From an uncultured bacterium (GTDB taxonomy: Bacteria; Desulfobacterota; DSM-4660; Desulfatiglandales; CALKZT01), in contig CALKZT010000034.1 of NCBI GenBank assembly GCA_938002815.1, positions 30,988-94,987 of the forward strand: a DNA stretch of 64,000 nucleotides, in the 5' to 3' direction. This document shows positions 27,029-56,167 of this stretch, one piece after another. The position numbers and the translations under genes were made by a program. The first letter of the stretch is position 1. Every line of letters starts with the position of its first letter. Under the pieces are notes generated by a model. That model did not search any database, had not been told where the DNA came from, and saw nothing but the letters and a program-made list of their open reading frames with translations.

Positions 27029-27049
27029 TAGTCGCCATTCAAAGGAAGG

Positions 27050-28093: not shown

Positions 28094-28143
28094 TAAATGT
28101 CCTGTTTATTTAATGAAAGCAAAACGTAATAAGGGGGTGCCAA

Positions 28144-30112: not shown

Positions 30113-30113
30113 G

Positions 30114-31973: not shown

Positions 31974-31985
31974 TTTGGATGGCCT

Positions 31986-33773: not shown

Positions 33774-33794
33774 TCCGAACTCAGAGGTGAAGGC

Positions 33795-34958
33795 TTGTCC
33801 CACAGTTATGACGTTATAATAGTAGGGGGAGGAATAGGAGGGGCCTCTCTCTCTTATCTCCTTTCCGGTTATGGGATAAGCAATGCCGTGATTGAAAGGC
33901 ACCCCCTTCCAAGGTACAAGGCCTGTGGGGGCGGTCTGACCCCTGCTGCTAGAGCTCTTCTGCCTCTGGATATAAGAGGGGTGATAGAGGAGGAGTGCTA
34001 CAGGGCCGCACTGGAGTTCAAGACAAGGGTTTTGGCAGTGAAGAGCTCCGATGGGCCTGTAATAAGCATGGTAATGCGTGAGAGGTTGGATCTATTTGTC
34101 CTCCAAGAGTCTTGTGCCCGAGGGGCAAGGCTCTATGAAAGATGCCATTTTATGGAGATGAAGGGTAGACCCGGCGACCTCTTGGTCTTTGGAGATAAGG
34201 GGAGTTTTAGGTGCAAATACTTGATCGGTGCCGACGGTGCCCAGAGCAGAGTGGCTCGAAAGGCAGGTCTATCTCCTCCTGAGCCTTGGGTGTGGGCACT
34301 GCAGTCAGAGGTCTATCCCACCAACCCAAAGACCATGGAAAGATTTTTTGGGACTGCCAGGTTTGATATAGGGTTTCAGGGCTCAGGGTACTCTTGGGCA
34401 TTCCCCAAAAGGGATCACCTCTCCGTGGGCACCGGTGCAGTTTTTGAGAGACCATCCCTTCTCAAAATGATACTATGGAGGTATCTTAAGGCCTTAGATT
34501 TAGGGGATTTCCATATAAAGAGGCTCAAATTACATGCCGTGCCTTTTAGGAGAAACTGGGAGATTCGAAGGGATCTCCCTGTGATCCTCCTTGGGGATGC
34601 CTTTGGGATCTCCGATCCCATCAGCGGGGAGGGGATGAGGTTTGCCATTGGATCCGCGGTTTTGGCCTCCAGGGCCTTAATAGATCTCTTTGACCATCCC
34701 TCTGAGGTGACCGGGAGCTATTTGGAATCCCTAAAGAGGGTCTACCATGAGGACCTCCTTTGTGCCTATGAGATAGCCAGAAACTTTTATTCAAAGCCAT
34801 GGTTACTCAAATTTTTGGCCATTCTATTTGGTAGGGCCTTTGTATCCAGATATTACGAGGTAGTTTCAGGGGGTATGAGGTACAAGGTCTTTAAGGAGAA
34901 GTTTCCATTGAAGATCCTTTTAAAGCGGGAGGCAGACCATGAAGGCCCAGGAGGATAG
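33795..34958 (+). CDS. geranylgeranyl reductase family FAD-dependent oxidoreductase
   Basis: YDVIIVGGGIGGASLSYLL dinucleotide-binding motif. LIGADGAQSRVARK. LLGDAFGISDPISGEGM. TTG start. Confidence 0.7.
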   Translation: MSHSYDVIIVGGGIGGASLSYLLSGYGISNAVIERHPLPRYKACGGGLTPAARALLPLDIRGVIEEECYRAALEFKTRVLAVKSSDGPVISMVMRERLDLFVLQESCARGARLYERCHFMEMKGRPGDLLVFGDKGSFRCKYLIGADGAQSRVARKAGLSPPEPWVWALQSEVYPTNPKTMERFFGTARFDIGFQGSGYSWAFPKRDHLSVGTGAVFERPSLLKMILWRYLKALDLGDFHIKRLKLHAVPFRRNWEIRRDLPVILLGDAFGISDPISGEGMRFAIGSAVLASRALIDLFDHPSEVTGSYLESLKRVYHEDLLCAYEIARNFYSKPWLLKFLAILFGRAFVSRYYEVVSGGMRYKVFKEKFPLKILLKREADHEGPGG

Positions 34959-36303
34959 GTGGAAAATCAAGGGATATGAGAGGTTGGTCAAATTCTTTGA
35001 AGAGGTGGACAAGGCAGAGCTCAGAGAGATTGGAGAGATCGAGGAGTTTTTGCTCCTTTACAGTGGGCTTGGTGAGGAGCAGAAGCTGAGGTTTTTAAAC
35101 GAGCTGGTCTCCAATTACGGTTTAAGAAAGTCATCCTTGGAACCCATACTCAAAGAGGTGATGAACTGTTCTGAGGACGACAAAGGCTGGCAGGAGCTCC
35201 TAACAAAATTGAGGGATGCCACCTTGAGTCCCAGGTTTAAGAAGTTGCGTGCCCTTGTGAGATGGCCGGGAGGACTCAAATTCCTGTTGGATATGAGGGG
35301 TGATATCTTAAACCTCACGCCTAAGGCAGGAACCTCCTTAAGCCCCTTAGAGAGGGATATATCGCATCTCTTTGAAAACTGGTTTCAGGAAGGTTTTCTG
35401 TATCTGGAGGAGATTACCCTGGATAGCCCCTATAGGCAGATAGAGATTATCAAGAACCGGGATTTGGTCCACCCCATGAGTTCCATAGAGGAGATGGGGG
35501 GGAGGTTGGGAAAGGATAGGAGATGTTTTGCCCTCTACCACAAAATCTGGCCAATGGAACCCATTGTATTCATAGAGGTAGCCCTCACAGAAGGGATCGT
35601 GAGAAATATTGATGAAATAGTGGGAGAAAGGAGAAAGGAGTTTCCCAGACCAGATACTGCCATCTTCTATTCTATAAATAACACCCAAAACGGTCTTGCA
35701 GGTTTAGGGCTCGGGAAGGTACTCATATTCAAGGTTGTAGAGTTTATCACCAAAAGAGAGCCCAACATAAGGAACTTTGCCACATTAAGTCCACTGCCCG
35801 GCTTTTATACGAGATATCTAAGGCCAATACTATTGGGAGAGGCTGATGGATTTCTCTTAAAAAGGGAGAACGTTGTGGAATTCTTTAAGGGTTCTAAGCT
35901 CAGAAGGCTCTTGAGGTCCTTCGATAAATCTGAGAAGGATCTAACCACCCTTCCAGATCTGCTGTCTAAAGTTTTTGATTCTTTAGAATGGGCCAATGAC
36001 CAAAACCTTGTGGAGGTCTTAGAGGAACCCCTAAGAAAAATAGCCTATAAATACATAACCGAAGAAAAGACCAAAGACGGCAAGCCCCTTAATCCTGTGG
36101 CCAACTTTCATTTGGGGAATGGCGCAACGGTCTCGTTGAAAAACGTAAATTTTCTCTCGAACAGGTCCGAGAGGGCCATAAGGGATGCCCTGGGTATCAT
36201 GGTAAACTATATCTATTCGTATAGTCTCCTTACAGAGGTGCGTAAGGCCATCAGGTGGCTGGACAAGATAGAGATAAGGGGTCTGGTAGACAGGTGGTTG
36301 TAA
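34939..36303 (+). CDS. malonyl-CoA decarboxylase family protein
   Basis: 454 aa. AIFYSINNTQNGLAGLGLGKVLIFKVVE and NFATLSPLPGF and ANFHLGNGA match the MCD catalytic-domain pattern as I recall it. gggagg SD. 20-nt overlap with the upstream gene. Confidence 0.75.
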   Translation: MKAQEDRWKIKGYERLVKFFEEVDKAELREIGEIEEFLLLYSGLGEEQKLRFLNELVSNYGLRKSSLEPILKEVMNCSEDDKGWQELLTKLRDATLSPRFKKLRALVRWPGGLKFLLDMRGDILNLTPKAGTSLSPLERDISHLFENWFQEGFLYLEEITLDSPYRQIEIIKNRDLVHPMSSIEEMGGRLGKDRRCFALYHKIWPMEPIVFIEVALTEGIVRNIDEIVGERRKEFPRPDTAIFYSINNTQNGLAGLGLGKVLIFKVVEFITKREPNIRNFATLSPLPGFYTRYLRPILLGEADGFLLKRENVVEFFKGSKLRRLLRSFDKSEKDLTTLPDLLSKVFDSLEWANDQNLVEVLEEPLRKIAYKYITEEKTKDGKPLNPVANFHLGNGATVSLKNVNFLSNRSERAIRDALGIMVNYIYSYSLLTEVRKAIRWLDKIEIRGLVDRWL

Positions 36304-36562
36304 GCCCTCTATCCTTTTAGGGGCCTGGGCCTCGATTCTCCTTGACACAGGGCTTCAAACTTTGTAGTTATGATATAGCTAAATAGTAGCCAATCGGTTC
36401 TGTTGTGGAAGATCCATATTACAACCTTTACCGAGTAACTTCCAATGGGGGGTTAAGCCTTCTATAGGATAGTCTCAAAGTTTGCCTCTCCCTCACAACC
36501 CCTAAGTATGTGGGTAGGGCCCAACTTTTTTAAAAAGGACGTACCACCTAAGGAGGACTTTC

Positions 36563-39154
36563 ATGGCCATTTATGAAGAGTTAAAGGCTATTGTGGGCAA
36601 AGAAAGGGTCTTTGCCGACAGGGTAGAGTGTCTTGCCTATTCCAGGGACATGTCTGTGCACAAGGGGGTCCCTGATTATGTGGTATTTGCAAAGACAACA
36701 GAGGAGGTCTCTCAGATTTTGAAGCTTGCCACCAAAGAGAGGATCCCTGTGGTGGCAAGGGGTTCTGGGACCAGTGTCACAGGGGCAGTGCTCCCTGTAA
36801 AGGGTGGAATATTAATGGACCTCCATCTTATGAATAGGATCTTGGAGATAGACCCCAAGAACTTTTTTGCAAGGGTAGAGCCGGGGGTGATTTGTGCCCA
36901 CCTCAATGGGGTTTTGGCAAAGCAAGGATTAATGTTTCCCCCAAATCCAGGGAGTGAAGTGATAGCTACAATAGGTGGTATGGTGAGTACCAATGCCTCA
37001 GGCCACAGGGCAGTGAAATATGGGACCACCAAAGACTATATCAAGGGTCTCACCGTGGTGCTGGCCAATGGGGAGGTGATCCAGACAGGTACTTTTGCCC
37101 CCAAATCCTCCTTGGGCTATGACTTGACCCATCTCTTTGCCTCCTCTGAGGGTACTTTGGGGGTGATCACAGAGATAGTGGTAAAACTTGAGCCCAAACC
37201 AGAGTACGGTGCCCTGGCCACTGCCATATTTGGAGATGTAAACAGGGCGGGAGAGGCAGTGACAGAGGTGATTACCTCCGGCATAAAGCTGGCGGGCTGT
37301 GAGATCCTGGACAAGTTTTCTCTTAAGGTAGTTGAGGAGGTGCTGAAGAGGGATGTCTCAAAGATAGAGGCATTGCTCCTTATGGAGGCAGATGGTGCGA
37401 AGGATGTGGTGATAAAGGACATGGGTCGAATAGGCGAGATCATGAAGGCCCATGGCTGCTTGGAGTTTGATTGGTCGGACGATCCAAAGAAAAGGGAAGA
37501 GATGATGCTGGCAAGGGGCAGACTCGTTCCCACCCTTTCCAGGATAAAGCCAGGGAACAGGCTTATCCCCATAGCAGAGGATTTGGGGGTGCCTTCCACA
37601 CAGATCCCGGCTACCATAAAGGCAGCACAGAGTATCTCCCAAAAATATGGGATACTGATAGCCACCTTTGGTCATGTGGGCGATGGGAATGTACACACCA
37701 CCTTTGTGGCAGATGTGAGGGATAGAAAGGACTGGGAGAGGATAAGAGAGGCCTCAGAGGAGCTGGTTCGTATTGCCATAGAGGCAAAAGGTACCTTGAG
37801 TGCAGAGCACGGAAGTGGGCTCACAAGGGCCCCTCATATTGAACTCCAGTTGGGCAACTCCATGGAGATTATGAGGGGGATCAAGAAGTTGCTGGATCCC
37901 CTTAACATCTTGAACCCCGGGAAGATGGGCCTGGAAGGTGAAAAGAGTGATATATTCGACTATTTTGCCTTTCAACCCCTCTTGGAGAATCCCGAGGGGG
38001 CAAGGTCCTTTGGAAGGGAGATTGACAACGAGGTACTGGCCTGCATTCACTGCGGTTTCTGTCGGCTTGGGTGTCCCACCTTCGCCCTGAGTCACAGGGA
38101 ATCAAAGAATGCCAGGGGAAGGAATGCCCTGGCATTCTATTTCATGAACAAAGAGATCGAGCCTTCAAAGGAGCTGGCAGAGGCCTTCTATAGCTGTACC
38201 ACATGTCAGGCCTGCACCTACTTCTGCCCCGCCAGGATAAAGGTGGATGAGATAGTGGAAGGGGTAAGAAGATACCTGTACAAAGAGGGTCTTACCCCTG
38301 AGCCTGTCTTGGGGGTGAGGGACAATATCTTAAAGACCGGAAACGTCTACGCAAGCCCCAAGGAGGAAAGGATCCAGGTCTATCCCCCTGCCCTAAAGGA
38401 GAAAATCAGGCAGGGGACCCTAAGAGCCAGGGCAGATACCCTTTTGTTCATGGGCTGTGTGCCCAGTTACCTGGACATGAAGATGGTACCTAGCCTCATC
38501 AAACCCCTTGATCTGGCAAAAGTGGACTACACAGTGCTTGGAATAGAAGAAAACTGTTGTGGCTTTCCCCTCTACCTCATGGGTAGTGATGCCTTTGAAG
38601 GCCATGCCAAAAGGGTGGCTGAGGCCATAGCGGCCACAGGCGCAAAAGAGCTGGTAACCCCTTGTGCCGGGTGCTTTAAGACCTTCAAGAAGATCTATCC
38701 CAAGGTAGTGGATCTCAAGATGGAGGTGCACCACACCGTCACATATCTCCATAAGCTACTCCAAGAGGGAAGATTGAAGCTCACCAAGCCGATTGAGGCG
38801 CAGGTCACCTATCACGATCCCTGCGATTTAGGTAGGGCATTGCAGATCTTTGAGCCCCCAAGGGATTTACTGAAAGCCATCCCGGGTCTAAAGTTGGTGG
38901 AGATGCCCAGGAATAGGCTCCAGGCCAAGTGCTGTGGAGGCGGAGGAGGGGTTATGGCCAATAACCCCGATATGGCAGTGGGTATGGCCTCTGATAGGGT
39001 AATGGATGCCCTCTCAGTGGGTGCAGATATCATAGTTTCTGGATGTGCTGCCTGCAAAGACACCTTGAGAAAGGGTCACAAGGCCCTTCCCAAAGAGAAG
39101 AGGGGAAAGCTTAAGATCATGGACATATCTGAGATCATAGGAGAGGCTATCTGA
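36563..39154 (+). CDS. FAD-linked oxidase (GlcD-like) fused to Fe-S/CCG-domain oxidoreductase (GlcF/HdrD-like)
   Basis: 863 aa. FAD-binding PVVARGSGTSVTG. Clusters CIHCGFCRLGCP and CTTCQACTYFCP. Two CCG-type regions (NCCGFPL; PCDLGR...KCCGGGGG). Confidence 0.8.
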   Translation: MAIYEELKAIVGKERVFADRVECLAYSRDMSVHKGVPDYVVFAKTTEEVSQILKLATKERIPVVARGSGTSVTGAVLPVKGGILMDLHLMNRILEIDPKNFFARVEPGVICAHLNGVLAKQGLMFPPNPGSEVIATIGGMVSTNASGHRAVKYGTTKDYIKGLTVVLANGEVIQTGTFAPKSSLGYDLTHLFASSEGTLGVITEIVVKLEPKPEYGALATAIFGDVNRAGEAVTEVITSGIKLAGCEILDKFSLKVVEEVLKRDVSKIEALLLMEADGAKDVVIKDMGRIGEIMKAHGCLEFDWSDDPKKREEMMLARGRLVPTLSRIKPGNRLIPIAEDLGVPSTQIPATIKAAQSISQKYGILIATFGHVGDGNVHTTFVADVRDRKDWERIREASEELVRIAIEAKGTLSAEHGSGLTRAPHIELQLGNSMEIMRGIKKLLDPLNILNPGKMGLEGEKSDIFDYFAFQPLLENPEGARSFGREIDNEVLACIHCGFCRLGCPTFALSHRESKNARGRNALAFYFMNKEIEPSKELAEAFYSCTTCQACTYFCPARIKVDEIVEGVRRYLYKEGLTPEPVLGVRDNILKTGNVYASPKEERIQVYPPALKEKIRQGTLRARADTLLFMGCVPSYLDMKMVPSLIKPLDLAKVDYTVLGIEENCCGFPLYLMGSDAFEGHAKRVAEAIAATGAKELVTPCAGCFKTFKKIYPKVVDLKMEVHHTVTYLHKLLQEGRLKLTKPIEAQVTYHDPCDLGRALQIFEPPRDLLKAIPGLKLVEMPRNRLQAKCCGGGGGVMANNPDMAVGMASDRVMDALSVGADIIVSGCAACKDTLRKGHKALPKEKRGKLKIMDISEIIGEAI

Positions 39155-40383
39155 TGAGAGTAGAGGCTAAGCCTATCGAGGCCACAAAGTTGTTGAAAAA
39201 GGTAATGTCTGACCACTTTTATGAGCTGGATGAGGCTTCGAGGACGAAGTCCAAAAAGATCGCCTGGTGTACCAGTGTAGGCCCTGCAGAGCTCTTAAGG
39301 GGGATGGGGTTTTTGGTGTATTTCCCTGAAAACCACGGTGCCATGTTAGGAGCCTCCAGGATGGCTACGGAGCTGATCCCGTATGCCAACCAGCTGGGCT
39401 ATTCCCCTGATATCTGTTCCTATCTTACAAGCGACATAGGTTCTTACCTTGCAAAGAAGACCCCCCTTCAGAAGTCCTACAATATAGAGGCCCCTCCAAG
39501 GCCTGACGTGCTGGTATTCAATACGAATCAGTGCAGGGATGTGAAAGACTGGTTCTCCTTCTATGGAAGGGAGTTCGATGTGCCTGTGATAGGGGTCTTT
39601 ACACATAGGTCCTTGGGTAAGATCCAGGATTTTCACATAAAGGATGTGGCAGAGCAGATAAAGGCCTTGATCCCAATACTTGAAGAGGTCTCAGGCCAAA
39701 GGTTCGATATGGACAGGTTCAAGGAGGTGGTTGCCCTCTCTAAGAAGACTTCAGAGCTCTGGCGGGCATGCCTTGAGACAGCCTCACACATACCATCTCC
39801 CTGGACCTTTTTTGATGCCACAATACATATGGGACCTGCTGTTGTGGGGAGGGGGACTAAAGAGGCCAATGAATACTATGAGGTGCTCTTAAAAGAACTA
39901 AAGGAGAGGGCCAAGGAGGGTATCCCGGGGGTACCTGAGGAGAGGCACAGGGTATACTGGGAAGGCATGCCCATATGGGGGAAGCTGAGGTCCCTCTCGG
40001 AGCTCTTTTCTTCCCTTAAGACCTGCGTTGTGGCCTCCACCTATTGCAACAGCTGGATCTTCGACCAATTGGATCCTGAGGAGCCCTTCGAGAGCATGGC
40101 CCTTGCCTATACAGAGCTCTTTATAGTGCGGGATGAAGATTACAAAGAGTCCTACATCCAGAACATGTATGAGTTTTTCAGGTTCAATGGGATCATATTC
40201 CACGATGCCAAGACCTGCCCCAACAATTCCAACAATAGATATGGTATGCCAGAGAGGCTTTCAAAGAGATTGAATATCCCATGCCTTGTGATAAACGGCG
40301 ATCTAAATGACCTTAGGTGCTTTTCCGAGGAGCAGGCCAAGACCAACATAGAGGCCTTTGTGGAGCAGTTGGAGGAGGTCTGA
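39154..40383 (+). CDS. 2-hydroxyacyl-CoA dehydratase / BcrBC-family protein, single subunit (double-cubane-cluster-protein-like)
   Basis: 409 aa. Family-like N-terminus KKIAWCTSVGPAELLRGMGF..YFPENH. Multiple conserved-looking Cys (WCTS, DICSY, NQCRD, YCNSW, KTCPNN). TGATG overlaps at both ends. Confidence 0.7.
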   Translation: MRVEAKPIEATKLLKKVMSDHFYELDEASRTKSKKIAWCTSVGPAELLRGMGFLVYFPENHGAMLGASRMATELIPYANQLGYSPDICSYLTSDIGSYLAKKTPLQKSYNIEAPPRPDVLVFNTNQCRDVKDWFSFYGREFDVPVIGVFTHRSLGKIQDFHIKDVAEQIKALIPILEEVSGQRFDMDRFKEVVALSKKTSELWRACLETASHIPSPWTFFDATIHMGPAVVGRGTKEANEYYEVLLKELKERAKEGIPGVPEERHRVYWEGMPIWGKLRSLSELFSSLKTCVVASTYCNSWIFDQLDPEEPFESMALAYTELFIVRDEDYKESYIQNMYEFFRFNGIIFHDAKTCPNNSNNRYGMPERLSKRLNIPCLVINGDLNDLRCFSEEQAKTNIEAFVEQLEEV

Positions 40384-41183
40384 TGTACTATGTTGGGGTG
40401 GATGTAGGGGCCTCCAGGACCAAGGTGGCCATCTTGGAGAGAAACAAAGAGCTTGTAGGCCAAGACATAAGGCGTTCTGGGACTGACTTCAAGGCCACTG
40501 CAGAGGAGGCCTTCACCTCTGCCGCCGATGGGATCCCAGACCTGAGGGAGATGGGCTTTTTCTGCGTAAGCACAGGTTATGGGAGGAGGAATGTGGAATT
40601 TGCCCATGAGACCAGGACGGAGATCGCCTGCCATGCAAAGACCGCTTACTTCTTCTATCCTGGGGCAATAACCGTAATAGACATAGGTGGACAGGATAAC
40701 AAGGTGATCAAACTGGATGAGAAGGGCAGAAGGATTTCCTTCAAGATGAACAGAAAGTGTGCTGCAGGCACAGGTGCATTCTTGGAGGAGATGTCTTTGA
40801 GGTTGAACATCCCTTTGGAGGAGATGGACCAATTGGCCCGCAAGAGCCAGGACATGGTGGAGCTTGGTAGTTACTGTACCGTCTTCACTGCTACAGAGGT
40901 CTTAGAGAAGATAAGACAAGGGAAAAAGGTGGAAGACATAGTAAAAGGTCTTTTTCTCTCCGTTTTAAAGCGGGTCTTCGAAATGGATATCTTAAGCCAA
41001 AAGGTGGTTATGACAGGTGGGGTAGTGGCCCACAATCCCTATCTGGTAGAGATGGCAAAGGAGATCTCCGGGAATGAGATACTGGTCCCGCCATTTCCAC
41101 AGCTTGCTGGTGCCTTTGGGGCCGCTCTTTTTGCATGGGAGTTAATAGAATCAAATAAAAGGGAGGTTGAAGATGAGAAGTAA
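40383..41183 (+). CDS. BcrAD/BadFG/HgdC-type activase ATPase (archerase)
   Basis: MYYVGVDVGASRTKVAI (ASKHA phosphate-1). IDIGGQDNKVI. Cluster-bridging Cys motifs NRKCAAGTGAFLEEM and GSYCTVFTATEV. Confidence 0.85.
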   Translation: MYYVGVDVGASRTKVAILERNKELVGQDIRRSGTDFKATAEEAFTSAADGIPDLREMGFFCVSTGYGRRNVEFAHETRTEIACHAKTAYFFYPGAITVIDIGGQDNKVIKLDEKGRRISFKMNRKCAAGTGAFLEEMSLRLNIPLEEMDQLARKSQDMVELGSYCTVFTATEVLEKIRQGKKVEDIVKGLFLSVLKRVFEMDILSQKVVMTGGVVAHNPYLVEMAKEISGNEILVPPFPQLAGAFGAALFAWELIESNKREVEDEK

Positions 41184-42750
41184 ATGGATGCACATGGGCA
41201 CTGTCTTAAAAATGCACGCCTTACACTATCCCAACAAGTTGGGCTGGCAGGACAAGTTCAAGGAATATACCTTCAAGGAGTGGAACGAGAGGGCTTGTAG
41301 ATTAGCCAACGGGTTGCGTTCTCTGGGCGTAAACTACAAGGACACCTTTGCGACCATAGCATACAACAGGGGCGAGTGGATGGATATATATGCTGGATGC
41401 GCCAAAGGCGGACAGATAATCGTCCCTGTAATGTTTAGGCTTGAGGGACCAGAGATTGAGTACATAGTTAACCATGCAGAATGTAAGGCATTTATTGTTG
41501 AAGAGCCTTTCGTAGAAAAGATAAATAAGATCAAGGATAAGTTGTGTGTTCCGAAAAATGCATATGTATATTTAGGGAATGGTCCTGCTCCTGAGGGCTA
41601 CATTCACTATGAAGAGTGGTTGAAAAACTCTGACCCTAATGAGGTAGATTACTTAGTAGACGCTGATGATCCTTGGACTATAATGTATACCTCTGGTACA
41701 ACAGGCAGACCAAAGGGGGTTGTAAGAACACACGAAAGTTATATGGCACAGTATTACCTCAACGATATAAATATGGGTGTGAGACCGACAGATAAGGTCA
41801 TGCTTGTTATGCCGATGTGCCATGTAAATTCCATCTTTTATAGCTTTTGCTATACCCTGGTGACTGCCCCTGTATTCGTCTACAATATGGTCAGTTTCGA
41901 CCCAGAGGACCTTTTGAGAACCATTGAAAAATACAAGATAACATTTACCTCCCTGGTTCCAACTCACTATGTGATGATACTTGCCCTCCCAGATGAGATC
42001 AAAGGGAGCATTGATGTCTCTTCCATTAGGCAGCTCTTGATCTCATCGGCTCCTGCCAGAAAAGAGCTAAAACTGGCAATCATGGAGTATTTTAAGAATG
42101 CAGAGCTATGGGAGGCCTATGGAAGCACCGAGGGAGGGCTCGTAACCCTGCTAAGGCCTGAGGAGCAATTTACAAAGCTTGGGAGTATAGGGAGGGAGAT
42201 ATTTGGTATTGATAGGATCAGGCTCCTTGACGAAAACAAGCAAGAGGTCCCTGTTGGGGAAGTGGGAGAGCTCTACTACAGGACACCCATGCTCTTTAAG
42301 GAATACTGGAAGGAACCAGAGAAGACTGCCCAGGCATTCTTTGAGGGCTGGTCCTCTGCAGGGGATATGGCCAGAAAGGATGAGGATGGCTACTTTACCC
42401 TTGTGGATAGAAAGGCCAATATGATCATTACAGGCGGGGAAAATGTCTATCCCTCTGAGGTAGAGGCAGTGGTGGCTACCCACAAGGCAGTAAAGGACGT
42501 GGCTGTGATAGGGGTGCCTGATCCCAAGTGGGGTGAAAGTATTAAGGCAGTAGTAGTCTTACACCAGGGCTTTGAACCTACAGAGGAGCTCAAAAAGGAG
42601 ATAATAGAGCATTGCAAGGGAAGGCTGGCAGGATACAAGAGGCCCAAGTCTGTGGACTTTATAAGAGATGAGGAGATGCCGAGGACTCCCACTGGCAAGA
42701 TACTTCACAGGTTGCTGAGGGAGAGATACGGAAAGTGGTCAGATACTTAA
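41173..42750 (+). CDS. AMP-forming acyl-CoA synthetase/ligase
   Basis: IMYTSGTTGRPKGV. GDMARKDEDGYFTLVDRKANMIITGGENVYPSEVE. PRTPTGKILHRLL. ATG 41173 lies 6 nt after gggagg and overlaps the activase gene end. Confidence 0.85.
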   Translation: MRSKWMHMGTVLKMHALHYPNKLGWQDKFKEYTFKEWNERACRLANGLRSLGVNYKDTFATIAYNRGEWMDIYAGCAKGGQIIVPVMFRLEGPEIEYIVNHAECKAFIVEEPFVEKINKIKDKLCVPKNAYVYLGNGPAPEGYIHYEEWLKNSDPNEVDYLVDADDPWTIMYTSGTTGRPKGVVRTHESYMAQYYLNDINMGVRPTDKVMLVMPMCHVNSIFYSFCYTLVTAPVFVYNMVSFDPEDLLRTIEKYKITFTSLVPTHYVMILALPDEIKGSIDVSSIRQLLISSAPARKELKLAIMEYFKNAELWEAYGSTEGGLVTLLRPEEQFTKLGSIGREIFGIDRIRLLDENKQEVPVGEVGELYYRTPMLFKEYWKEPEKTAQAFFEGWSSAGDMARKDEDGYFTLVDRKANMIITGGENVYPSEVEAVVATHKAVKDVAVIGVPDPKWGESIKAVVVLHQGFEPTEELKKEIIEHCKGRLAGYKRPKSVDFIRDEEMPRTPTGKILHRLLRERYGKWSDT

Positions 42751-42769
42751 AAAGAGGAGGTAATACAGG

Positions 42770-43957
42770 ATGTTGAAGAACTCTTTTATTCCTTACAAGG
42801 GGTACTATTCGTCACCTTTTTGCAGGTGGCAGGGGTCCCTTGCCTTGGACAATGCCATTGAATTGGGCGCAAAAACCGCCAAGAGGTGGTTAGAGTCCAA
42901 AAAATGGGAACCCACTATATTCGACTATGTCATCTTTGGAAACACCGTGGGGCAGCACCATCAGTTCTATTCCAGCCCATGGGCAGCCCATATGATGGGG
43001 GCAAGGGTCCCTGCAGTGGCCATGAGCCAGGCATGCACCACCTCCACTACATGCCTATTCTTTGGGGCCATGGGTGTAGAGTTGGGGTTATTCAAGAACG
43101 TCTATGTGATGCTTGCAGACAGATGTTCCAACGGTCCACATACCATTTGGCCTAATCCCCTCGGACCTGGTGGTGAGGTGATCTCAGAAAATTGGCTCAT
43201 GGACAATTTCAACTCAGACCCTGCGGTTGGAAACAAGATGATAGAGACCGCAGAAAATGTGGCAAAGGAGGCGGGAATTACAAGAGAAGAGTGCGATGAC
43301 CTCACGGTTAGGAGGTACGAGCAGTATCTGGATTCCCTAAAGAACGACAGGGAATTCCAGAGGCGCTATATGTTCCCTGTGGAGGCCACTGTCACCAAGA
43401 AGGATACAAAGCTTGTAGAAGAGGACGAAGGGATTACTCCTGTGAAAAAGGATGTGATAGCCAAGATGAAGCCTGTGATCCCAGGGGGGGTACTTACATT
43501 CGCAACCCAAACACACCCTGCAGATGGAAATTGTGGTCTGATCGTGACAACAAGGGAAAAGGCAAAGGAGTTGAGCGCAGATCCGAATATCCCTATACAG
43601 GTGATTTCTTATGGTTGTGCGAGGGTAAAGCCGGGTTACATGGCAATGGCACCTGTTCCCTCTGCCAGAATGGCCTTGGCCAATGCAGGCTTGGACATAA
43701 AGGACATGAAGGTGATAAAGACCCACAACCCATTCATAGTAAACGACATCTACATGGCCAAGGAATTGGGGATTGACCCCTATAAGTTCAACAACTACGG
43801 GAGCAGTATAATCTATGGCCATCCCCAAGGGCCCACCGCAGGGAGGCTCATCATAGAAGGAATTGAGGAGACAGTCCTTTTGGGAGGTGGCTACATGCTC
43901 TGGGCAGGCTGTGCTGCAGGAGATACGGGCGCAGCCTTGGTATTGAAGATAGGTTAA
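42770..43957 (+). CDS. thiolase-like (acetyl-CoA acetyltransferase family) protein
   Basis: 395 aa. Nucleophile-region MSQACTTS. KTHNPF. C-terminal GCAAGDTGAALVL. aggagg SD. Confidence 0.7.
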   Translation: MLKNSFIPYKGYYSSPFCRWQGSLALDNAIELGAKTAKRWLESKKWEPTIFDYVIFGNTVGQHHQFYSSPWAAHMMGARVPAVAMSQACTTSTTCLFFGAMGVELGLFKNVYVMLADRCSNGPHTIWPNPLGPGGEVISENWLMDNFNSDPAVGNKMIETAENVAKEAGITREECDDLTVRRYEQYLDSLKNDREFQRRYMFPVEATVTKKDTKLVEEDEGITPVKKDVIAKMKPVIPGGVLTFATQTHPADGNCGLIVTTREKAKELSADPNIPIQVISYGCARVKPGYMAMAPVPSARMALANAGLDIKDMKVIKTHNPFIVNDIYMAKELGIDPYKFNNYGSSIIYGHPQGPTAGRLIIEGIEETVLLGGGYMLWAGCAAGDTGAALVLKIG

Positions 43958-43980
43958 TGGAAGATTTGGAGGCTATTCCC

Positions 43981-44949
43981 TTAATCAGGGGATGGCCTCT
44001 TTGTATAGTATCTCTTCTGTCCCACCTCATACCAAAAGACCTTCCCCTGATTTGTGAAAAGGGTGAGCTTAAAGGGGAGGTTTTTTGGGCTCAAGAGGCC
44101 CTGGAGGTTGGCAGTGGGGTAAAACCTTAGGTCCAGGACCTCCAGTTTCTCTCCTTCTCTGGATACTGCCCCAAACCTTAAGAACCTATTAAAATAGAAG
44201 TCCAAGAATCTATCCTTCTGGAGATCCCCTGGTAGAGGCTCACTCCTTACAGGGAGAAAGCTACTCACATATCTTGTCTTTCCCGTAATTATGTTGTGGC
44301 TTTTCAAGGACAAAGAATCCTTTGAGGCTTCTATTACCTTCCAATTAATGGGGGCCAAGAGATCGGGAAGGACTTCCACTGATAAGGTAGGACTTTGTGC
44401 CTTTATTTTACTCTGGAGGCCAGTTTTAACTGTAAGACAAAAGATGGGGTATAGGAGCCAGACTAGGAGCAATGCTGAATAGAGCTTAGAGGGCTTTACT
44501 TTAAATGCCCTCATAATAGAGAAAGATAAAAGCAAGAGGGCCCAATATATTGGATCTATGATGAAGAGGGCATCTAAAGCAAACCTTTTGTGACTAAAGG
44601 GACTTAACAGGGATGTGCCATAACTTGTCATGAGGTCCAAATAGAGATGCCCTAAGATTGAAAAGAGTACTCCAAAGGCTAACTTTCTTAGCTCTTGTAT
44701 TTTAAATGAAATTTTTTTGTGATAGAAGAGTAAGATCAGCGAGGTCCAAAGTATAGACGTTATGATACCATGACTTAAGGAGCGGTGGTGTATGAGATAT
44801 TCTCTTCTGTCAAAAAAATATGTGATTATATCAATGTCAGGTATTAATGCGCCAATTAGGATTAAAGGGAATACAATTTTGACTTTTGATCTTTCCTTAA
44901 AATATCTCCCCTGAATGATGCCAGATATTAGATGGGTTGCCTGGTCCAT
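43981..44949 (-). CDS. YdjM-like membrane-bound metal-dependent hydrolase with C-terminal extension
   Basis: MDQATHLISG N-terminus. HRSLSHG motif. 5-6 TMs, then a soluble tail of about 130 aa. Confidence 0.55.
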   Translation of the reverse strand: MDQATHLISGIIQGRYFKERSKVKIVFPLILIGALIPDIDIITYFFDRREYLIHHRSLSHGIITSILWTSLILLFYHKKISFKIQELRKLAFGVLFSILGHLYLDLMTSYGTSLLSPFSHKRFALDALFIIDPIYWALLLLSFSIMRAFKVKPSKLYSALLLVWLLYPIFCLTVKTGLQSKIKAQSPTLSVEVLPDLLAPINWKVIEASKDSLSLKSHNIITGKTRYVSSFLPVRSEPLPGDLQKDRFLDFYFNRFLRFGAVSREGEKLEVLDLRFYPTANLQGLLSPKNLPFKLTLFTNQGKVFWYEVGQKRYYTKRPSPD

Positions 44950-44971
44950 TAGCTCTTGTAGCTGAAGAGTC

Positions 44972-46132
44972 CTAATATAGGAGGTACTGCTCTCTCCACT
45001 TTAGATACTGCTTGTGTTCCTGCTCATAACTCGAGATAAGATCCATGATCTCCCCGCCATTATCTATACATTCTCTTAGGTTTCTATCTCCCCAAACAAT
45101 GTCCACAGGCATTCTTTCGTGTTCGTACTCATAGGGGGGAGCCTTCCAAGAGAACTTTGCGGAAAGCTCTTTTACTGCCCTAAGTACTTCTGCTATAAAG
45201 GCACTACCTCTAAAGCCCTTTTTATCAGTGACATGGATGGTGAATCCATGGCAGAGCTCCCCCTGCCATTTGTTGAAGGTAGGTTTGAAGTGATATTCCT
45301 GGAGAACTATCCCCTCTAAGCACCTGGGATTTAGGGCCCTCTTTAACCCGTAGGGGTCCAAAAAGGGCGCTCCGAAGATCTCAAAGGGCCTTGTGGTTCC
45401 CCTCCCCTCCGAGATGTTGGTGGCCTCCAAGAGGACTGTGGCGGTGTAGGCAAGGGCAGTGGTAGTAAAGGGCATATTGGGAGAGGGCATATGCCAGATA
45501 AGGCCTGTATCTTCAAATGACATCTCCCTTTTCCAGCCCTTCAACTGGATAACCTCAAGATCGAGGTCCAGGCGATAGTGGTCTTTGAGTGCCAGTGCAA
45601 TTTCTCCCAAGGTTAGTCCATGCCTCAAAGGAATTGGGAGGTTTCCCACAAAGGAGAAAAGCCCTTCCTTTAATATGGGTCCATCTATGGTCATTCCATT
45701 TACGGGATTGGGCCTATCGAGGACCAAGAGCTTTGTGCCGGTTTGGGCCGAGATCCTCATGCATCCCAAGAGGGTGCTTGAAAAGGTGTATACCCTTGTG
45801 CCCACATCCTGCAAATCTACCAGGAGGATATCCAAATCCTCCAGCATCCATGAGGAGGGTTCTCTGCGGGACTCATAAAGGCTATATACGGGCACCTTAT
45901 AGATGGGATGAATGGAATGGGGTGTCTCTATCATGTTGTCCTGGTCCTGGCCATAGAACCCATGCTGTGGACCGAATATGGCCTTAAGGCTACAGGGTAC
46001 TCTCTCCCAAAGGAGGTCAACTATGTGGACCAGGTCCCTTGTGAGGGAGGCCTGGTTACAAAGCACTCCAATCCTTGCACCTTTTAGGCTAGGGGCCCAA
46101 TCCAAAATTCGATCTATGCCGTTTAAGACCAA
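44972..46132 (-). CDS. DUF1343 family protein (NamZ-like exo-N-acetylmuramidase family)
   Basis: NGIDRIL...LKGARIGVLCNQASL N-terminus. VDLQDVGTRVYTF. EATNISEGRGTTRPFE. Confidence 0.75.
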   Translation of the reverse strand: MVLNGIDRILDWAPSLKGARIGVLCNQASLTRDLVHIVDLLWERVPCSLKAIFGPQHGFYGQDQDNMIETPHSIHPIYKVPVYSLYESRREPSSWMLEDLDILLVDLQDVGTRVYTFSSTLLGCMRISAQTGTKLLVLDRPNPVNGMTIDGPILKEGLFSFVGNLPIPLRHGLTLGEIALALKDHYRLDLDLEVIQLKGWKREMSFEDTGLIWHMPSPNMPFTTTALAYTATVLLEATNISEGRGTTRPFEIFGAPFLDPYGLKRALNPRCLEGIVLQEYHFKPTFNKWQGELCHGFTIHVTDKKGFRGSAFIAEVLRAVKELSAKFSWKAPPYEYEHERMPVDIVWGDRNLRECIDNGGEIMDLISSYEQEHKQYLKWREQYLLY

Positions 46133-46534
46133 TTACCCCCCTCATGTGAACTGATCTTTGCCCAGCCATTATAAGGAAAAATCTGATTTTAGAAAGGTCT
46201 CTAAACTCAACTGCCTTAGACCTCTAATATATCCTCTGGGTTTGAGAAAGGACCCATTTTTTGATGTCTCCAAGGAGGGCCATTGTCACCCCACCTAAAG
46301 AAGTGATCACTTCCCAAAAGCACACTTCGTGGGTGTTGAAACGGTGGAAAGGCCTAAAACATACCTCCCAGTATTCAATCTTTGGGAGCTTTAGAGGGGC
46401 GAGGTGTTTAGTGGGTTTCATAAGGGAGGCAACTTTAGATTCCATTTAGGTCTGGGGGATAGTTAATTTTTTCTTGACCTGTTCTAAATAATCAAATTCA
46501 ATTGCCAGAGTAACTAAGAGAGGGGGAGTGTGAA

Positions 46535-49500
46535 ATGAAAGATGGTTTTAGGTTCGTGGGCCTGTGTTTGGCACTTTTAGTCTTGTTGGCGATTTCCGGA
46601 TGTGGGGATGGGGGCGGTGGAACAATAAGCTCAGCCCCCCCTGGTGCGGTTCTAAGTGGCTCTGCTGTAAAAGGTCCCTTCCAAAAGGGTGGCAAAGTGG
46701 AAGTCTTTAAGGTGGACAGTAACGGTTCTTTGATTACCCCGGCTGCCTGGAAGGGAACTATAGAGTCGAATGACGGCAAATTTTCCATCGACGTGGGAGA
46801 TTACCAAGGGGTGGTGGAGATCCAAGTCTCTGGGGCTTATCTAGATGAAGCCACCGGCTCAACCATAACGACTTCAGAGCCTTTAAAGTGCGTTGAATAT
46901 GTATCAGGTAGCACAAGCGCCAATGTAAACATCGTAACGCACTTGGCCTCAGAAAAGATAAAGAATTACATGAAAAAGGGATATACACCTGAGGAGGCAA
47001 TATCAGCGGCCCAAGCTGAAATAGCCCTGCTCCTGGAAGAGGTGATAGGAGAGAAGAAACCAAAGGAGCTAAATCCTCTAAAGATCTCTGTGCCTGAAAA
47101 CGCCAACTTGTTGCTCTTAAGCTATGCCCTTCAAAAGATTGGGGGTGAATATACCGTCAAACTCTTAGATTACTTGGCCGAGAATATAAAGGATGAGGGT
47201 AACCTTGACTGGGAGCTAACCGAAGAACAGAAGGCAGGATTAGCTTCTACTGCTCTTACCCCTGTAACCCTACAACTCAACGAATGGGCCAATGCCTTTG
47301 CTGATGATTACACGAATGTATTCAATTCTCTCAAGAATATCACTGGCTTTGAGGGTTCCTTGGACGATTTGAAAAATCTGAAGCTTACCTTGAAATCCTT
47401 TAGCAAGCTAAGCTCCATCGGCCTTGCAAAGCTTGCAGGGAGTGAGGTCTATGTAAACTTAGATCAAAAACCCCTTGGAACCACAGCCTTGGCCTTAAAA
47501 GAGGAAGAGGGGAAAGTGATTGCAGAGTTAAACTCCCCTGACTTCACATATGGTTTTGTAAGTACTGAAAAAGGTAAAGATGCATACATGTTTGTGCAAC
47601 CTGTGGATAAAAACAAGACCAAACTGGAACTGCCAGAAGGAGAATTAACCTGTGAAGGGTGTGAGGAGGAGTTGGGGGGTCTAAAGGCAATTTCACTCCC
47701 ATCAGGCATGGATAAACCGGTTCCTAAGACACTCTCTTCTTCTGATGCCACAACAAAGGTGATTGTCTCTAACATGAAACTCAAAAAGGACATTACCGTT
47801 GCAGTAACTCCATATAAGTCAAATAAATTTATACCTAAGTTTGATTCGATTGCCACAGATACTGGCCTGAAAGACCCAATTGTGATTTCTGGTGCGGATA
47901 TAAAGATAGTGGATTCTTTAGGAAAACCTACAACCTCGGAGAAGGCATGTTTCTGCGCCTCTATATCCATTCAGACAACACACATAATTCAAGGTAGCAT
48001 GGGTATAAATCAACTAGCTACCAAACTTAACGCAGGGGATGGTAGCCTCTATCTACTTGTCTTCAAAGACAAGAAATGGCAGATCGTAAATGGCGCAGGT
48101 TTTGTCCTCAGTGGGAATAGCCTTAACCAAACATCGGGTAAGACTTTGAGATTGTATCCCTTTGTGATTGTCTATGTTCCAAAGGAAGGCACTGCCTTTT
48201 CAGGAAAGATCAGTGGAACAGTAACGGAGGCGGGGGGCTTGACCCCTGTTAAGGGAGCACTGGTAACCATAGAGGGCCAGGAGATATTTGCGGTTACAGG
48301 ACCAGATGGGGCATACACCTTAGCCTACTCTGCCCTAAAGGCAAATGAACCTGTTCAGTTTACATTGACATTTACAAAAACTGGTTATTCAAAGGTAGCA
48401 AGTAGTGTGTCTGTGAGTTCTGCTAATCCCAATGTCACCAAAGATGCCCAGCTAGAGAAGGTGGAAACCTTTACTTTAAAAGGCAAGGTGACTGGAGATG
48501 AGGGAGCTTCTATACCTAACGCCCATCTGACCTTATACTATGATTCCCTTGAGTTTGATACGCTTACTGACGCCTCTGGCAATTATTCCTTTGAACTTGT
48601 TCCGGTTGAAAAAAAGGATACCCTCAGTATCGTAGTGGAGGCATTTGGATTTGAAAAGAAGCAGTTGAAGGTTCAGGGAAATATTGAAGATGGGAAGCTT
48701 ATCTACAACATAGGGCTTACCAAAAAGGTGGTCATGCTCCCCACTATATACAAGGAGGGTTTTGAGACGGAGTTGACCGAGAAGAAATGGACCTTTACTA
48801 ACTATAGCAGCCTCGTGGGATGGCAGGTGGTAAAGAAACCAGAGCAGATTAAGGTGGCAGAGCAAATAGTGGATCAGATCCTATTTCCAGATCGGGCCAC
48901 TGTGGATGTAATTGGAAAGGTGGTAAGTCTTTATGGCGTCCAGGGCTATGGTGGGACATGCGAAACCTATCCCATTTGGCCCATCGAACAGCCACCTACC
49001 CCTGAATCACCAGCCATACCCCAAAATGTAAAACTTACCCCAACTAATGCAGGTTTTGGTATATCATGGGATCCTGTCGAAGGTGTTTATGAGTACCTAA
49101 TTACCGTCACCGACGGTGTGACATCTGTTTCATTCCCTTTATTCCCTCAGTATGAAAGTTCTGGATATATTATTAGTGGCCCTATTTCTGACTGGCAGGA
49201 GTACACAAAGACATTAAACATAACCAACGGGAAGGTGTATCAGGTGGGGGTAAAATCCATGCAGTTCAAGCAGCCAGAAGATGGGTTGACTAGCCAGGAG
49301 GCATGGGTTTTTAGCAACTATTCAGATATCAAATGTGTGATGCCCATTTTACCTTCTAAGGTGGCAATCGCCTTCAACAAGGTTGGTGAAAACACCGAGA
49401 CCATTGTATACGCCAAGGGTGTCGATTTAAATGGGGATGGGGTATTCGATTCCGTTGAGACTGATTTTGAGGACTTTAACGCAGCCCAATATCAATTCGA

Positions 49501-50248: not shown

Positions 50249-50627
50249 ATGTCTTAAGAGGGATATCCTTTGTCGCGATTATCAGGGTCCTAAGGCCCTT
50301 GGGGTTTTTAAGTATAACCTGACCGGATCTAACTGGTGCCTTCAGGCGGATCCTCTTAATCTCCTCCATTAGATCAAATATTGAATTTAAAGGAACAGGA
50401 GAGGTTGTCCTTACACTCACCAAGGGTAGCTCACCGCCCTCTACCGAGACGCTCGTGCAAATGGTTCTGACAGATCCTTTGATCTCACTTTCTGCCCATT
50501 TTGGGCCCTTTTTGCACAGTTGCCCTTCTACCTTTGTTATCTCCAACGCCTCCCCTTGTTTTTGGTATTCCACCTCAAGTTCGCAGCCATTGGGGCAGAT
50601 TACACAGACAAGTTCTCTTCTCATCAC
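50247..50627 (-). CDS. DUF1667 domain protein
   Basis: 126 aa. N-terminal ELVCVICPNGCELEV. Follows the two FAD oxidoreductases with a 4-nt overlap. Confidence 0.75.
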   Translation of the reverse strand: MMRRELVCVICPNGCELEVEYQKQGEALEITKVEGQLCKKGPKWAESEIKGSVRTICTSVSVEGGELPLVSVRTTSPVPLNSIFDLMEEIKRIRLKAPVRSGQVILKNPKGLRTLIIATKDIPLKT

Positions 50628-51874: not shown

Positions 51875-51877
51875 ATC

Positions 51878-53344: not shown

Positions 53345-53360
53345 GGCCTTCTCCCCTAAG

Positions 53361-54797: not shown

Positions 54798-54943
54798 GAA
54801 GTCCTCCAAATATTTCAGTCTCTAAACCTATAGGCGAACTTTTATTATTTAGCCCTGGCACCCAAAGGCCCCTCATTGGACTTTAGAGGCAACACTCCAT
54901 TGTGTTATGCCATATGGGCAGATAGCCTATAAGGGGAAAAAAC

Positions 54944-56164: not shown

Positions 56165-56167
56165 GAG

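Follow-up and report, generated by a model that had tools for sequence, protein, structure and literature searches.

What reaction could a radical dehydratase carry out in an anaerobe whose locus encodes its catalytic subunit without a partner? The question is raised by five co-directional genes on the + strand (36563-43957) of a 64,000-nucleotide stretch of contig CALKZT010000034.1, hereafter the window, from an uncultured member of the Desulfobacterota. Most descriptions of ketyl-radical 2-hydroxyacyl-coenzyme A (CoA) dehydratases concern alpha/beta enzymes from clostridia and fusobacteria that ferment amino acids. The cluster studied here has one 409-aa protein with the HGD-D domain of these enzymes, and one activase. 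We propose that the operon encodes an uncharacterised route for the catabolism of 2-hydroxy acids, built around a beta-subunit-free (R)-2-hydroxyacyl-CoA dehydratase, and we put the probability of this reading at about 70%.

The first gene of the cluster (36563-39154) encodes an 863-aa GlcD/GlcF-type fusion, in which Pfam identified the domains FAD_binding_4, FAD-oxidase_C, Fer4_8 and two CCG. It is followed by the genes of the 409-aa protein (39154-40383; one full-length PF06050 domain), a 266-aa activase (40383-41183; BcrAD_BadFG domain, TIGR00241 at 207 bits for a cut-off of 125), a 525-aa AMP-forming acyl-CoA ligase (41173-42750; AMP-binding and AMP-binding_C), and a divergent 395-aa thiolase (42770-43957; Thiolase_N and Thiolase_C). 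Read from the DNA, the HGD-D gene meets its two neighbours at TGATG junctions, with the fusion gene at 39152-39156 and with the activase gene at 40381-40385. The activase and ligase genes overlap by 11 nt (41173-41183), with a GGGAGG ahead of the overlap, and the 19-nt gap between the ligase and thiolase genes (42751-42769) holds a GAGGAGG. The 259-nt intergenic region on the + strand before the first gene (36304-36562), with an AGGAGG 7 nt ahead of the first ATG, is the presumed promoter region of the operon. A first-pass annotation, made from the letters of this stretch, had described the same cluster with these junctions and had read its first product as a flavin adenine dinucleotide (FAD)-dependent dehydrogenase with two [4Fe-4S] motifs and two CCG domains. 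The open reading frames (ORFs), their domains and the DNA bear this out and, on the public contig, which is identical to this stretch, an independent gene caller chose identical starts. A tblastn search of the window with the five proteins revealed no paralogue of any of them elsewhere in it. Between 34500 and 45500, matches to sigma-70-like and terminator-like consensus sequences were no commoner than in shuffled sequence, so that transcript boundaries could not be drawn, and an Rfam scan of 30000-47000 at gathering thresholds matched no family.

In a scan of species-representative genomes (one genome per species), at least 582 loci proved to encode a protein related to the 409-aa one. For ORF clustering and neighbourhood analysis, we used the best 80 of these, at 65-80% identity. 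Neighbours were counted only among orthologous loci with enough flanking DNA, and the denominators therefore vary. The 80 loci come mostly from metagenome-assembled Desulfobacterales, Desulfatiglans and other Thermodesulfobacteriota, and include strain NaphS2, Acidobacteria, one spirochaete, and a few Chloroflexi and Bacteroidales bins. In 38 of 64 loci, the GlcD/GlcF fusion gene directly precedes the HGD-D gene. Downstream of the HGD-D gene, 66 of 68 loci have the activase, 39 of 59 the ligase (with orthologues 61-82% identical), and 29 of 51 the thiolase. One orthologue of the fusion (locus L084, 7392-9990) was called as two genes, encoding 677 aa and a 192-aa CCG protein; the gene may be truly split here, or interrupted by a frameshift. 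Among cultured strains, Desulfatiglans anilini DSM 4660, whose HGD-D gene is on contig AULM01000010.1, has the order of the window: malonyl-CoA decarboxylase, GlcD/GlcF fusion, HGD-D protein, activase, ligase, and thiolase. As the gene order is kept across loci and in D. anilini, the five-gene cluster is a real, conserved and tightly coupled unit, whose arrangement is beyond chance. Its carriers are mainly bacteria of the sulfate-reducing type.

The gene that precedes the operon (34939-36303, + strand) encodes a 454-aa protein of the malonyl-CoA-decarboxylase family (MCD_N and MCD). Such a gene is found upstream of the fusion gene in 8 of 55 loci, including D. anilini, NaphS2, and a few metagenome-assembled genomes (MAGs). 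Given this low frequency, we rejected it as a member of the operon; it is possibly an accessory gene, with an uncertain link.

Family placement and cluster ligands of the 409-aa protein

The 409-aa protein matches the PF06050 (HGD-D) profile at 222 bits, with residues 42-406 aligned to positions 3-342 of 342. This domain is shared by 2-hydroxyacyl-CoA dehydratases (HAD), benzoyl-CoA reductases (BCR), and double-cubane cluster proteins (DCCP). A profile of the orthologues (A1), searched against the PDB, scored 196 bits with HadB, 133 with MbdO, 94 with BzdO and 20 with DCCP, and matched none of the beta subunits (HadC, BzdN, MbdN) at E <= 1. The NCBIfam profile of HadB (NF052455) gave 210 bits for a cut-off of 750, which marks a relative and not HadB itself. 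The scores were 140 bits for BcrB (cut-off 486), 63 for BzdO (cut-off 449), and 53 for double_cubane (NF040772, cut-off 350), the latter covering only the C-terminal half.

The predicted fold gave the same ranking. We used an AlphaFold model computed from an alignment of 102 diverse relatives, with a predicted local distance difference test (pLDDT) score of 97.3; a first prediction, from 20 close orthologues, had a pLDDT of 62.6 and was discarded. Searched with Foldseek, the model is closest to HadB, with a template modelling (TM) score of 0.91 and a root-mean-square deviation of 1.9 Å at 27% sequence identity. It is followed by MbdO (TM 0.87-0.88), BzdO (0.86-0.87), and DCCP (0.76-0.79), and the beta subunits score lower than the alpha subunits (HadC 0.67, BzdN and MbdN 0.73-0.75). 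Since both the profile and the fold scores with HadB, MbdO and BzdO far exceed those with DCCP, the 409-aa protein is, judging from its sequence and predicted structure, a catalytic alpha-type (HadB/HgdA/FldB/BzdO) member of the BCR/HAD radical enzyme family.

The cysteines of the protein are found at positions 39, 88, 127, 206, 291, 298, 355, 377, and 389. Three of them, C88, C127, and C355, align with cysteines of HadB, MbdO, and BzdO. They are cysteines in 92-93 of 96 representatives of the wider alpha-type family, and are the only ones kept family-wide. The glutamate of the PEN motif, aligned to Glu55 of HadB, is kept in 88 of the same 96. In BzdO, Cys95, Cys128, and Cys380 hold the [4Fe-4S]-OH2 site (PMC11971306). 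C88, C127 and C355 are thus the predicted ligands of a three-cysteine [4Fe-4S] cluster with a free fourth iron.

The first-pass annotation had equated the single-subunit architecture with that of the DCCP reductases. The seven-cysteine motif of DCCP, CX19CX18-19CX29CX166-170CX32-34CX32C (PMC7317905), was sought in the 409-aa protein by regular expression and is absent even at relaxed spacing. We then compared the profile of the orthologues with that of 17 aligned DCCP-family proteins using hhalign (probability 96.8%). The DCCP ligands C113, C143, C308, and C373 correspond to C88, C127, C298, and C355, whereas C75 is replaced by Leu54 and the position of C340/C342 is deleted. Hence, two of the six ligand positions are lost, and the distal sub-cluster keeps only one of its three ligands. 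The equation with DCCP therefore fails on the cysteine motif, on the profile scores and on the fold, all of which favour HadB. The clade has two further conserved cysteines, C39 and C298, which are kept in all examined relatives down to 41% identity and are not kept in the wider alpha-type family. C39 aligns with a cysteine of MbdO, and C298, which aligns with DCCP ligand C308, may be what is left of the distal sub-cluster.

A single HGD-D gene in each locus

The dehydratases closest to the 409-aa protein work with a beta subunit, which is itself an HGD-D protein. A first search for a partner, made with the narrow profile A1, was discounted, as A1 misses both HadC and BzdN when run against the PDB. 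In the same database, a broad alpha-type profile (A2) and a DCCP profile (A3) recover HadC, BzdN, and MbdN, with scores of 49-116 bits. We searched with both, filters off, all six-frame stop-to-stop ORFs of at least 70 aa in 84 related loci and in the entire window, 1.32 Mb in total. No second HGD-D gene was found in these 84 loci or in the window: there is exactly one per locus, and the lone second match is a frameshifted piece of the same gene. The precomputed Pfam annotations of the D. anilini contig and of another long contig likewise have a single HGD-D gene. The single catalytic subunit described at first reading is thus confirmed with profiles able to detect beta subunits. In these relatives, no second catalytic subunit is adjacent or fused to the first, and the only fusions that we saw join the HGD-D protein to PanE, a 2-oxo-acid reductase (see below).

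The pair formed by the HGD-D protein and the activase is invariable across several phyla, which makes a self-sufficient enzyme the economical reading. Lacking a beta subunit, this enzyme would most likely function on its own, presumably as an alpha2 homodimer. A likely quaternary model for it is offered by DCCP, a homodimer that docks a homodimeric ATPase (PMC7317905, PMC9351452).

Gene context, pathway and substrate

The other four proteins of the operon can each be placed in a family. The nearest solved relative of the activase is HadI (187 bits), followed by MbdQ and HgdC. Its two cysteine motifs, KCAAGTG (C126) and YCTVF (C165), had been noticed from the sequence and align with those of HadI and MbdQ. 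Judging from its TIGR00241 score and these matches, it is a bona fide dehydratase activase, i.e., an ASKHA-type ATP-dependent archerase in which C126 and C165 would hold the bridging [4Fe-4S] cluster of a homodimer. The nearest solved relatives of the ligase are FadD5, FadD13, a feruloyl-CoA synthetase, and an anthranilate-CoA ligase. The ligase would activate the 2-hydroxy acid, standing in for the CoA-transferase of the clostridial pathways. The thiolase scores 166 bits with TIGR01930, for a cut-off of 240.55. Its catalytic motifs QAC89TT, GH351P, and GC381AAG (Cys89, His351, and Cys381) are kept in 29 of 30 orthologues, and 29 of 30 also carry HNPF where classical thiolases have NEAF, a fingerprint loop. 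This divergence suggests an unusual 3-oxoacyl-CoA substrate, which could arise by hydration and oxidation of an enoyl-CoA. Among solved proteins, the N-terminal half of the fusion comes closest to the lactate dehydrogenase LctD (264 bits), glycolate oxidase, and mitochondrial D-lactate dehydrogenase; D2HGDH scores 126 bits. The fusion is below every NCBIfam equivalog cut-off, including those of glcD (407 for 568) and YdiJ (193 for 1350). It is probably a D-2-hydroxy-acid dehydrogenase, with a GlcF/HdrD-type module made of two [4Fe-4S] motifs and two CCG domains.

What stands upstream of the HGD-D gene changes between relatives. In 11 loci, Pfam revealed a PanE/ApbA 2-oxo-acid reductase in the place of the fusion, in most cases with an ACT-pair protein before it. 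A LarA-type 2-hydroxy-acid racemase is directly upstream of the HGD-D gene in three loci of Acidobacteria (L073, L077, and L080), and in two other loci (L013 and L029) LarA adjoins the GlcD/GlcF gene. Hence, three unrelated enzymes of 2-hydroxy or 2-oxo acids, the GlcD/GlcF fusion, PanE, and LarA, alternate at this position. In an exhaustive search of representatives, we also found three independent database proteins with PanE fused to the N-terminus of the HGD-D protein, which are 52, 41, and 32% identical to the query. One such fusion, of 728 aa, was confirmed on a contig of a Myxococcota MAG (BAAHET010000005.1; locus L085, 8001-10187). Downstream of its gene come an activase and the three subunits of a Mo-hydroxylase, the large one of which has its best NCBIfam match in the alpha subunit of 4-hydroxybenzoyl-CoA reductase (733 bits for a cut-off of 994).

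The CoA-ester enzymes around the pair also vary. In four loci of Acidobacteria (L073, L075, L077, and L080), a family III CoA-transferase, LarA, the HGD-D protein, the activase, and an ADP-forming acyl-CoA synthetase are found together, without thiolase, the CoA-transferase and the synthetase being there in place of the AMP-forming ligase. HadA and FldA are family III CoA-transferases. Genes of beta-oxidation adjoin the operon in other loci: L056, L060, and L062 have a FadB-like dehydrogenase/hydratase fusion, and L059 and L063 have a 3-hydroxyacyl-CoA dehydrogenase. In loci resembling those of Syntrophales, the PanE-HGD unit adjoins IorA/IorB (thiamine pyrophosphate- and ferredoxin-type subunits of 2-oxo-acid oxidoreductases), a PaaK-like ligase, ACT proteins, and a LivJ-type binding protein.

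More distant relatives, from Bacteroidota, Ignavibacteria, and Chlorobi, are 56-58% identical to the 409-aa protein and share C39, G43, E59, C88, C127, C298, and C355 with it. Four of the five contexts sampled among them lie within benzoyl-CoA-pathway clusters of the Thauera type (bcrCBAD), on contigs of Ignavibacteria and Bacteroidota (L086, L087/L088, L090, and L091). The order in these clusters is bcrC, bcrB, bcrA, bcrD, an ADP-forming synthetase, PanE, a Zn-dehydrogenase, two genes of the enoyl-CoA hydratase family, the HGD-D gene, an activase, a thiolase, and a large 3-hydroxyacyl-CoA dehydrogenase. Several continue with an acyl-CoA dehydrogenase and a molybdenum hydroxylase, and their BcrC and BcrB exceed the NCBIfam cut-offs.

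Taken together, the comparative context (GlcD/GlcF, PanE, LarA, CoA-transferase, and the genes of beta-oxidation) converges on one pathway, in which a 2-hydroxy acid is converted to its CoA ester, dehydrated, taken through beta-oxidation, and cleaved by thiolysis. The initial annotation had suggested an anaerobic acid pathway of activation, ATP-driven reduction or dehydration, and thiolytic cleavage. The activation, the ATP-primed chemistry and the thiolysis gain support from this context, which points to dehydration of a 2-hydroxyacyl-CoA rather than to low-potential reduction of another substrate, the part of the suggestion that we do not retain.

In the route that we propose, a D-(R)-2-hydroxy acid would be taken up directly, or the GlcD/GlcF-type flavo-iron-sulfur dehydrogenase would convert it into its 2-oxo acid and back, and the AMP-forming ligase would make the CoA thioester of the 2-hydroxy acid. 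The homodimeric activase, using ATP, would then inject one low-potential electron into the HadB-like 409-aa protein, acting as an alpha2 homodimer. The thioester carbonyl could bind the iron of the three-cysteine [4Fe-4S] cluster that has no cysteine ligand, a ketyl radical would form and the alpha-hydroxyl would leave, so that the 2-enoyl-CoA is released and the electron recycled. From the context (the alternation of GlcD/GlcF, PanE, and LarA, the PanE fusions, and the family III CoA-transferase), we would expect a syn-elimination of water from the (R)-2-hydroxyacyl-CoA. Hydration by an enoyl-CoA hydratase and oxidation by a 3-hydroxyacyl-CoA dehydrogenase, whose genes would lie elsewhere in the genome, would give the 3-oxoacyl-CoA, which the divergent thiolase would cleave into acetyl-CoA and an acyl-CoA shorter by two carbons. 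Gene content, family placement, cluster ligands, the lack of a partner gene in the loci, and the conserved or alternating context are what we observed; from them we infer which reaction takes place and in which direction, as well as the substrate and the quaternary state.

Several points weigh against this proposal. The function is assigned from homology and context, and all the solved or characterised 2-hydroxyacyl-CoA dehydratases that we found are alpha/beta heterodimers. An alpha2 enzyme would have to accept the electron of the activator without an accessory subunit. A gene for a beta subunit may also lie far off in the genome, beyond the 64 kb of the window or the 10-kb flanks of the other loci. 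The relatives from Bacteroidota, Ignavibacteria, and Chlorobi encode BcrC and BcrB in the same cluster, 0.8-10 kb from the HGD-D gene, and a partner borrowed from the Bcr enzyme is conceivable in them. In addition, the thiolase and activase found in these clusters are no orthologues of the window proteins (23% and 34% identity, respectively). For this reason, we rejected any transfer of function from them, and the bcr-cluster context can be transferred only via the HGD-D protein. The operon of the window has neither a hydratase nor a dehydrogenase gene for the steps after dehydration, and an enzyme of the GlcD/GlcF type normally oxidises the 2-hydroxy acid, and would then compete with the dehydratase branch. 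Finally, the proposal has no explanation for the clade-specific conservation of Cys39 and Cys298.

Among possible substrates, we favour the aryl-lactates (phenyl-lactate or 4-hydroxyphenyl-lactate), because the relatives at 56-58% identity sit in benzoyl-CoA reductase clusters. Arylpyruvate would be converted to aryl-lactate, aryl-lactyl-CoA, and cinnamoyl- or coumaroyl-CoA, and finally to benzoyl- or 4-hydroxybenzoyl-CoA and acetyl-CoA. The neighbours IorAB, PaaK, and the 4-hydroxybenzoyl-CoA-reductase-like hydroxylase also fit aromatic 2-oxo acids better than 2-hydroxyglutarate. Nevertheless, 2-hydroxyglutarate is a possible substrate, as is a branched-chain or small aliphatic 2-hydroxy acid. 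For a sulfate-reducing degrader of benzene, the aryl-lactate sequence is put forward, only hypothetically, in a 2026 paper, which also points to a "singular" FldB-like gene in it (PMC13416013). In sulfate reducers grown on ketones, unnamed "BCR/2-hydroxyglutaryl-CoA dehydratase subunits" with no assigned role are induced (PMC7888143, PMC8084838); they could be relatives of the present clade, or may belong to a classical two-subunit enzyme. In full-text literature searches and in papers on Desulfatiglans, D. multivorans, and TRIP_1, we found no description or assay of the clade or the cluster, nor any characterised pathway to which the cluster is orthologous.

One may go further and see in the 409-aa protein a prototype homodimeric dehydratase, evolutionarily intermediate between the homodimeric DCCPs and the heterodimeric HAD and BCR enzymes, with C298 as a remnant of the distal cluster. 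In sulfate reducers and other respiratory anaerobes, it would open a hitherto unrecognised route from phenylalanine and tyrosine, through aryl-lactates, cinnamoyl- or coumaroyl-CoA and beta-oxidation, to benzoyl-CoA or 4-hydroxybenzoyl-CoA. We advance this extension tentatively, as an idea that is rather doubtful as a whole.

If the substrate were 2-hydroxyglutarate, the enzyme might instead interconvert glutaconyl-CoA and (R)-2-hydroxyglutaryl-CoA, possibly in the reverse direction. With the fusion as a D-2-hydroxyglutarate dehydrogenase-like enzyme, it would join glutamate and 2-oxoglutarate either with the lower benzoyl-CoA pathway, or with thiolysis of 3-oxoglutaryl-CoA to malonyl-CoA and acetyl-CoA followed by malonyl-CoA decarboxylase. 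The fusion does match the D-2-hydroxyglutarate dehydrogenase YdiJ (193 bits) and mitochondrial D2HGDH, weakly, but its GlcD domain is nearer to lactate and glycolate dehydrogenases (264 bits, for 126 with D2HGDH). The decarboxylase-family gene is upstream in the window, in D. anilini and in NaphS2, but this linkage is seen in only 8 of the 55 loci. The relatives from Bacteroidota, Ignavibacteria, and Chlorobi would suit the idea, as they cluster with genes of the lower benzoyl-CoA pathway, acyl-CoA dehydrogenase included, and have an ADP-forming, hence reversible, acyl-CoA synthetase beside PanE; so would the atypical thiolase. However, in the clade of the window an AMP-forming ligase sets the direction from acid to CoA ester, the nearest solved relatives of this ligase act on hydrophobic or aromatic acids, and the IorAB, PaaK, and 4-hydroxybenzoyl-CoA-reductase-like neighbours are better suited to aromatic 2-oxo acids. 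We therefore regard a link to glutaconyl-CoA as unlikely.

The 409-aa protein could also act like a benzoyl-CoA reductase, using ATP to drive the reduction, by one or two electrons, of an aryl- or enoyl-CoA that the ligase supplies. MbdO and BzdO are its next-best matches after HadB in sequence and fold, close relatives lie within bcrCBAD clusters, and many of the host lineages degrade aromatic compounds. However, the BcrB score, far from its cut-off, is below that of HadB, and the clusters of Bacteroidota and their allies already hold a complete BcrCBAD. In BzdNO, the BzdN-type subunit carries an electron-storing double cubane (PMC11971306), and partners of the BzdN/MbdN type, present in the solved reductases, are absent from the 84 loci and the window. 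There is also a single activase, of the homodimeric type, instead of a BcrA/BcrD pair, and the PanE fusions and the alternation of GlcD/GlcF with LarA indicate a 2-hydroxy acid. Such a reductase is, in our view, quite improbable. The identification as a homodimeric ATP-dependent reductase of the DCCP/YjiM type, acting on some low-potential substrate, was rejected as very improbable: the single HGD-D and activase genes, the homodimeric state of DCCP (PMC7317905), and the alignment of C298 with C308 speak for it, but the missing seven-cysteine motif with its lost ligands (C75 and C340/C342), the scores (53 bits for a cut-off of 350 with NF040772, 20 bits in the PDB search for 196 with HadB, and a TM of about 0.77 for 0.91), and neighbours that are enzymes of 2-hydroxy acids and CoA esters all speak against it.

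The dehydration of 2-hydroxyacyl-CoA by a beta-subunit-free enzyme is thus the reading that we retain. Apart from this system and its upstream neighbour, some other genes of the window were noticed. On the - strand, at 50624-54809, three co-directional genes encode a 482-aa HpaB_N/HpaB-family protein, a DAO-type flavoprotein with a BFD-like [2Fe-2S] domain, and a Pyr_redox_2 flavoprotein. The HpaB family includes 4-hydroxybutyryl-CoA dehydratase, and these genes may form a second unusual acyl-CoA dehydratase system in the window. At 30114-31973, a single 619-aa polypeptide with a TTG start has an ACCA-type domain followed by a Carboxyl_trans domain, i.e., a fused carboxyltransferase. Three adjacent redox genes at 26078-28986 encode a Fer4_8 protein, a Fer4_22 protein, and a FAD_binding_6/NAD_binding_1/DHODB-type Fe-S protein. 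An Mrp/Mbh-like module on the - strand (57550-63943) has three Proton_antipo_M genes and membrane subunits of the MnhB/MbhE type, and is adjoined by succinyl-CoA-synthetase-like genes (55019-57040).

Significance and comparison with known systems

The clade described here, without a beta subunit, extends over Desulfobacterota, Acidobacteria, Bacteroidota, and other groups, with at least several hundred genomes counted at species level. If its members are active, the accessory subunit would be dispensable for taking up the electron of the activator, which bears on the proposed evolution from DCCP to BCR to HAD. Dehydratase chemistry would then serve respiratory anaerobes of marine sediments that oxidise their substrates completely, as a candidate route by which 2-oxo and 2-hydroxy acids enter beta-oxidation and the benzoyl-CoA pathway. 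If aryl-lactates from phenylalanine and tyrosine are the substrate, the demanding alpha-oxidation of phenylacetyl-CoA would be avoided. For specialists, the interest lies in the path of the electron to the catalytic cluster without an accessory subunit, in the reason for the conservation of Cys39 and Cys298, and in the role of the enzyme in sulfate reducers. Two cultured carriers, D. anilini DSM 4660 and strain NaphS2, are available for biochemistry.

The HadBC/HadI system of Clostridioides difficile (PDB 3O3M, 4EHT) is alike in the alpha subunit, the positions of the three cysteines, the PEN glutamate, and the HadI-like activase. The logic of its pathway, with a 2-oxo-acid reductase, activation to the CoA ester, and dehydration, recurs in relatives of the present operon. 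However, it has the beta subunit HadC, whereas the present system has none nearby and is far from reaching the HadB equivalog cut-off. It uses the CoA-transferase HadA where we found an AMP-forming ligase, and the NAD-dependent LdhA where we found an FAD/Fe-S/CCG dehydrogenase. The present operon also differs from it in having a thiolase, and its HGD-D protein in having the extra clade-specific C39 and C298. The hosts differ as well, being respiratory Desulfobacterota here and fermenting clostridia for Had.

FldABC/FldI of Clostridium sporogenes, which we compared by its description only, converts aryl-lactyl-CoA to cinnamoyl-CoA, i.e., the chemistry that we propose for the favoured substrate. 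FldABC is described as a heterotrimer that includes a CoA-transferase subunit (PMC13416013), while here one subunit would work with a ligase. The product of Fld is reduced to phenylpropionate, whereas the fate proposed here is oxidative, by beta-oxidation to benzoyl-CoA.

The gene layout, with one HGD-D gene and one activase gene, is shared with DCCP and its reductase DCCP-R in Carboxydothermus hydrogenoformans (PDB 6ENO, 7YYL) and with YjiM/YjiL in Escherichia coli. DCCP, however, has the seven-cysteine motif, C75, and C340/C342, all of which the present protein lacks, keeping a cysteine, Cys298, at the position of Cys308. The class I benzoyl-CoA reductases (BcrABCD, BzdNOPQ, and MbdONPQ) belong to the same BCR/HAD family, and BzdO and MbdO share the three-cysteine [4Fe-4S]-OH2 site (PMC11971306). 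They have in addition a double-cubane subunit of the BzdN/BcrC type and a second ATPase subunit, neither of which is found here. A class I benzoyl-CoA reductase is made of two types of HGD-D protein and two types of ATPase, whereas the present system has one HGD-D gene and one activase gene.

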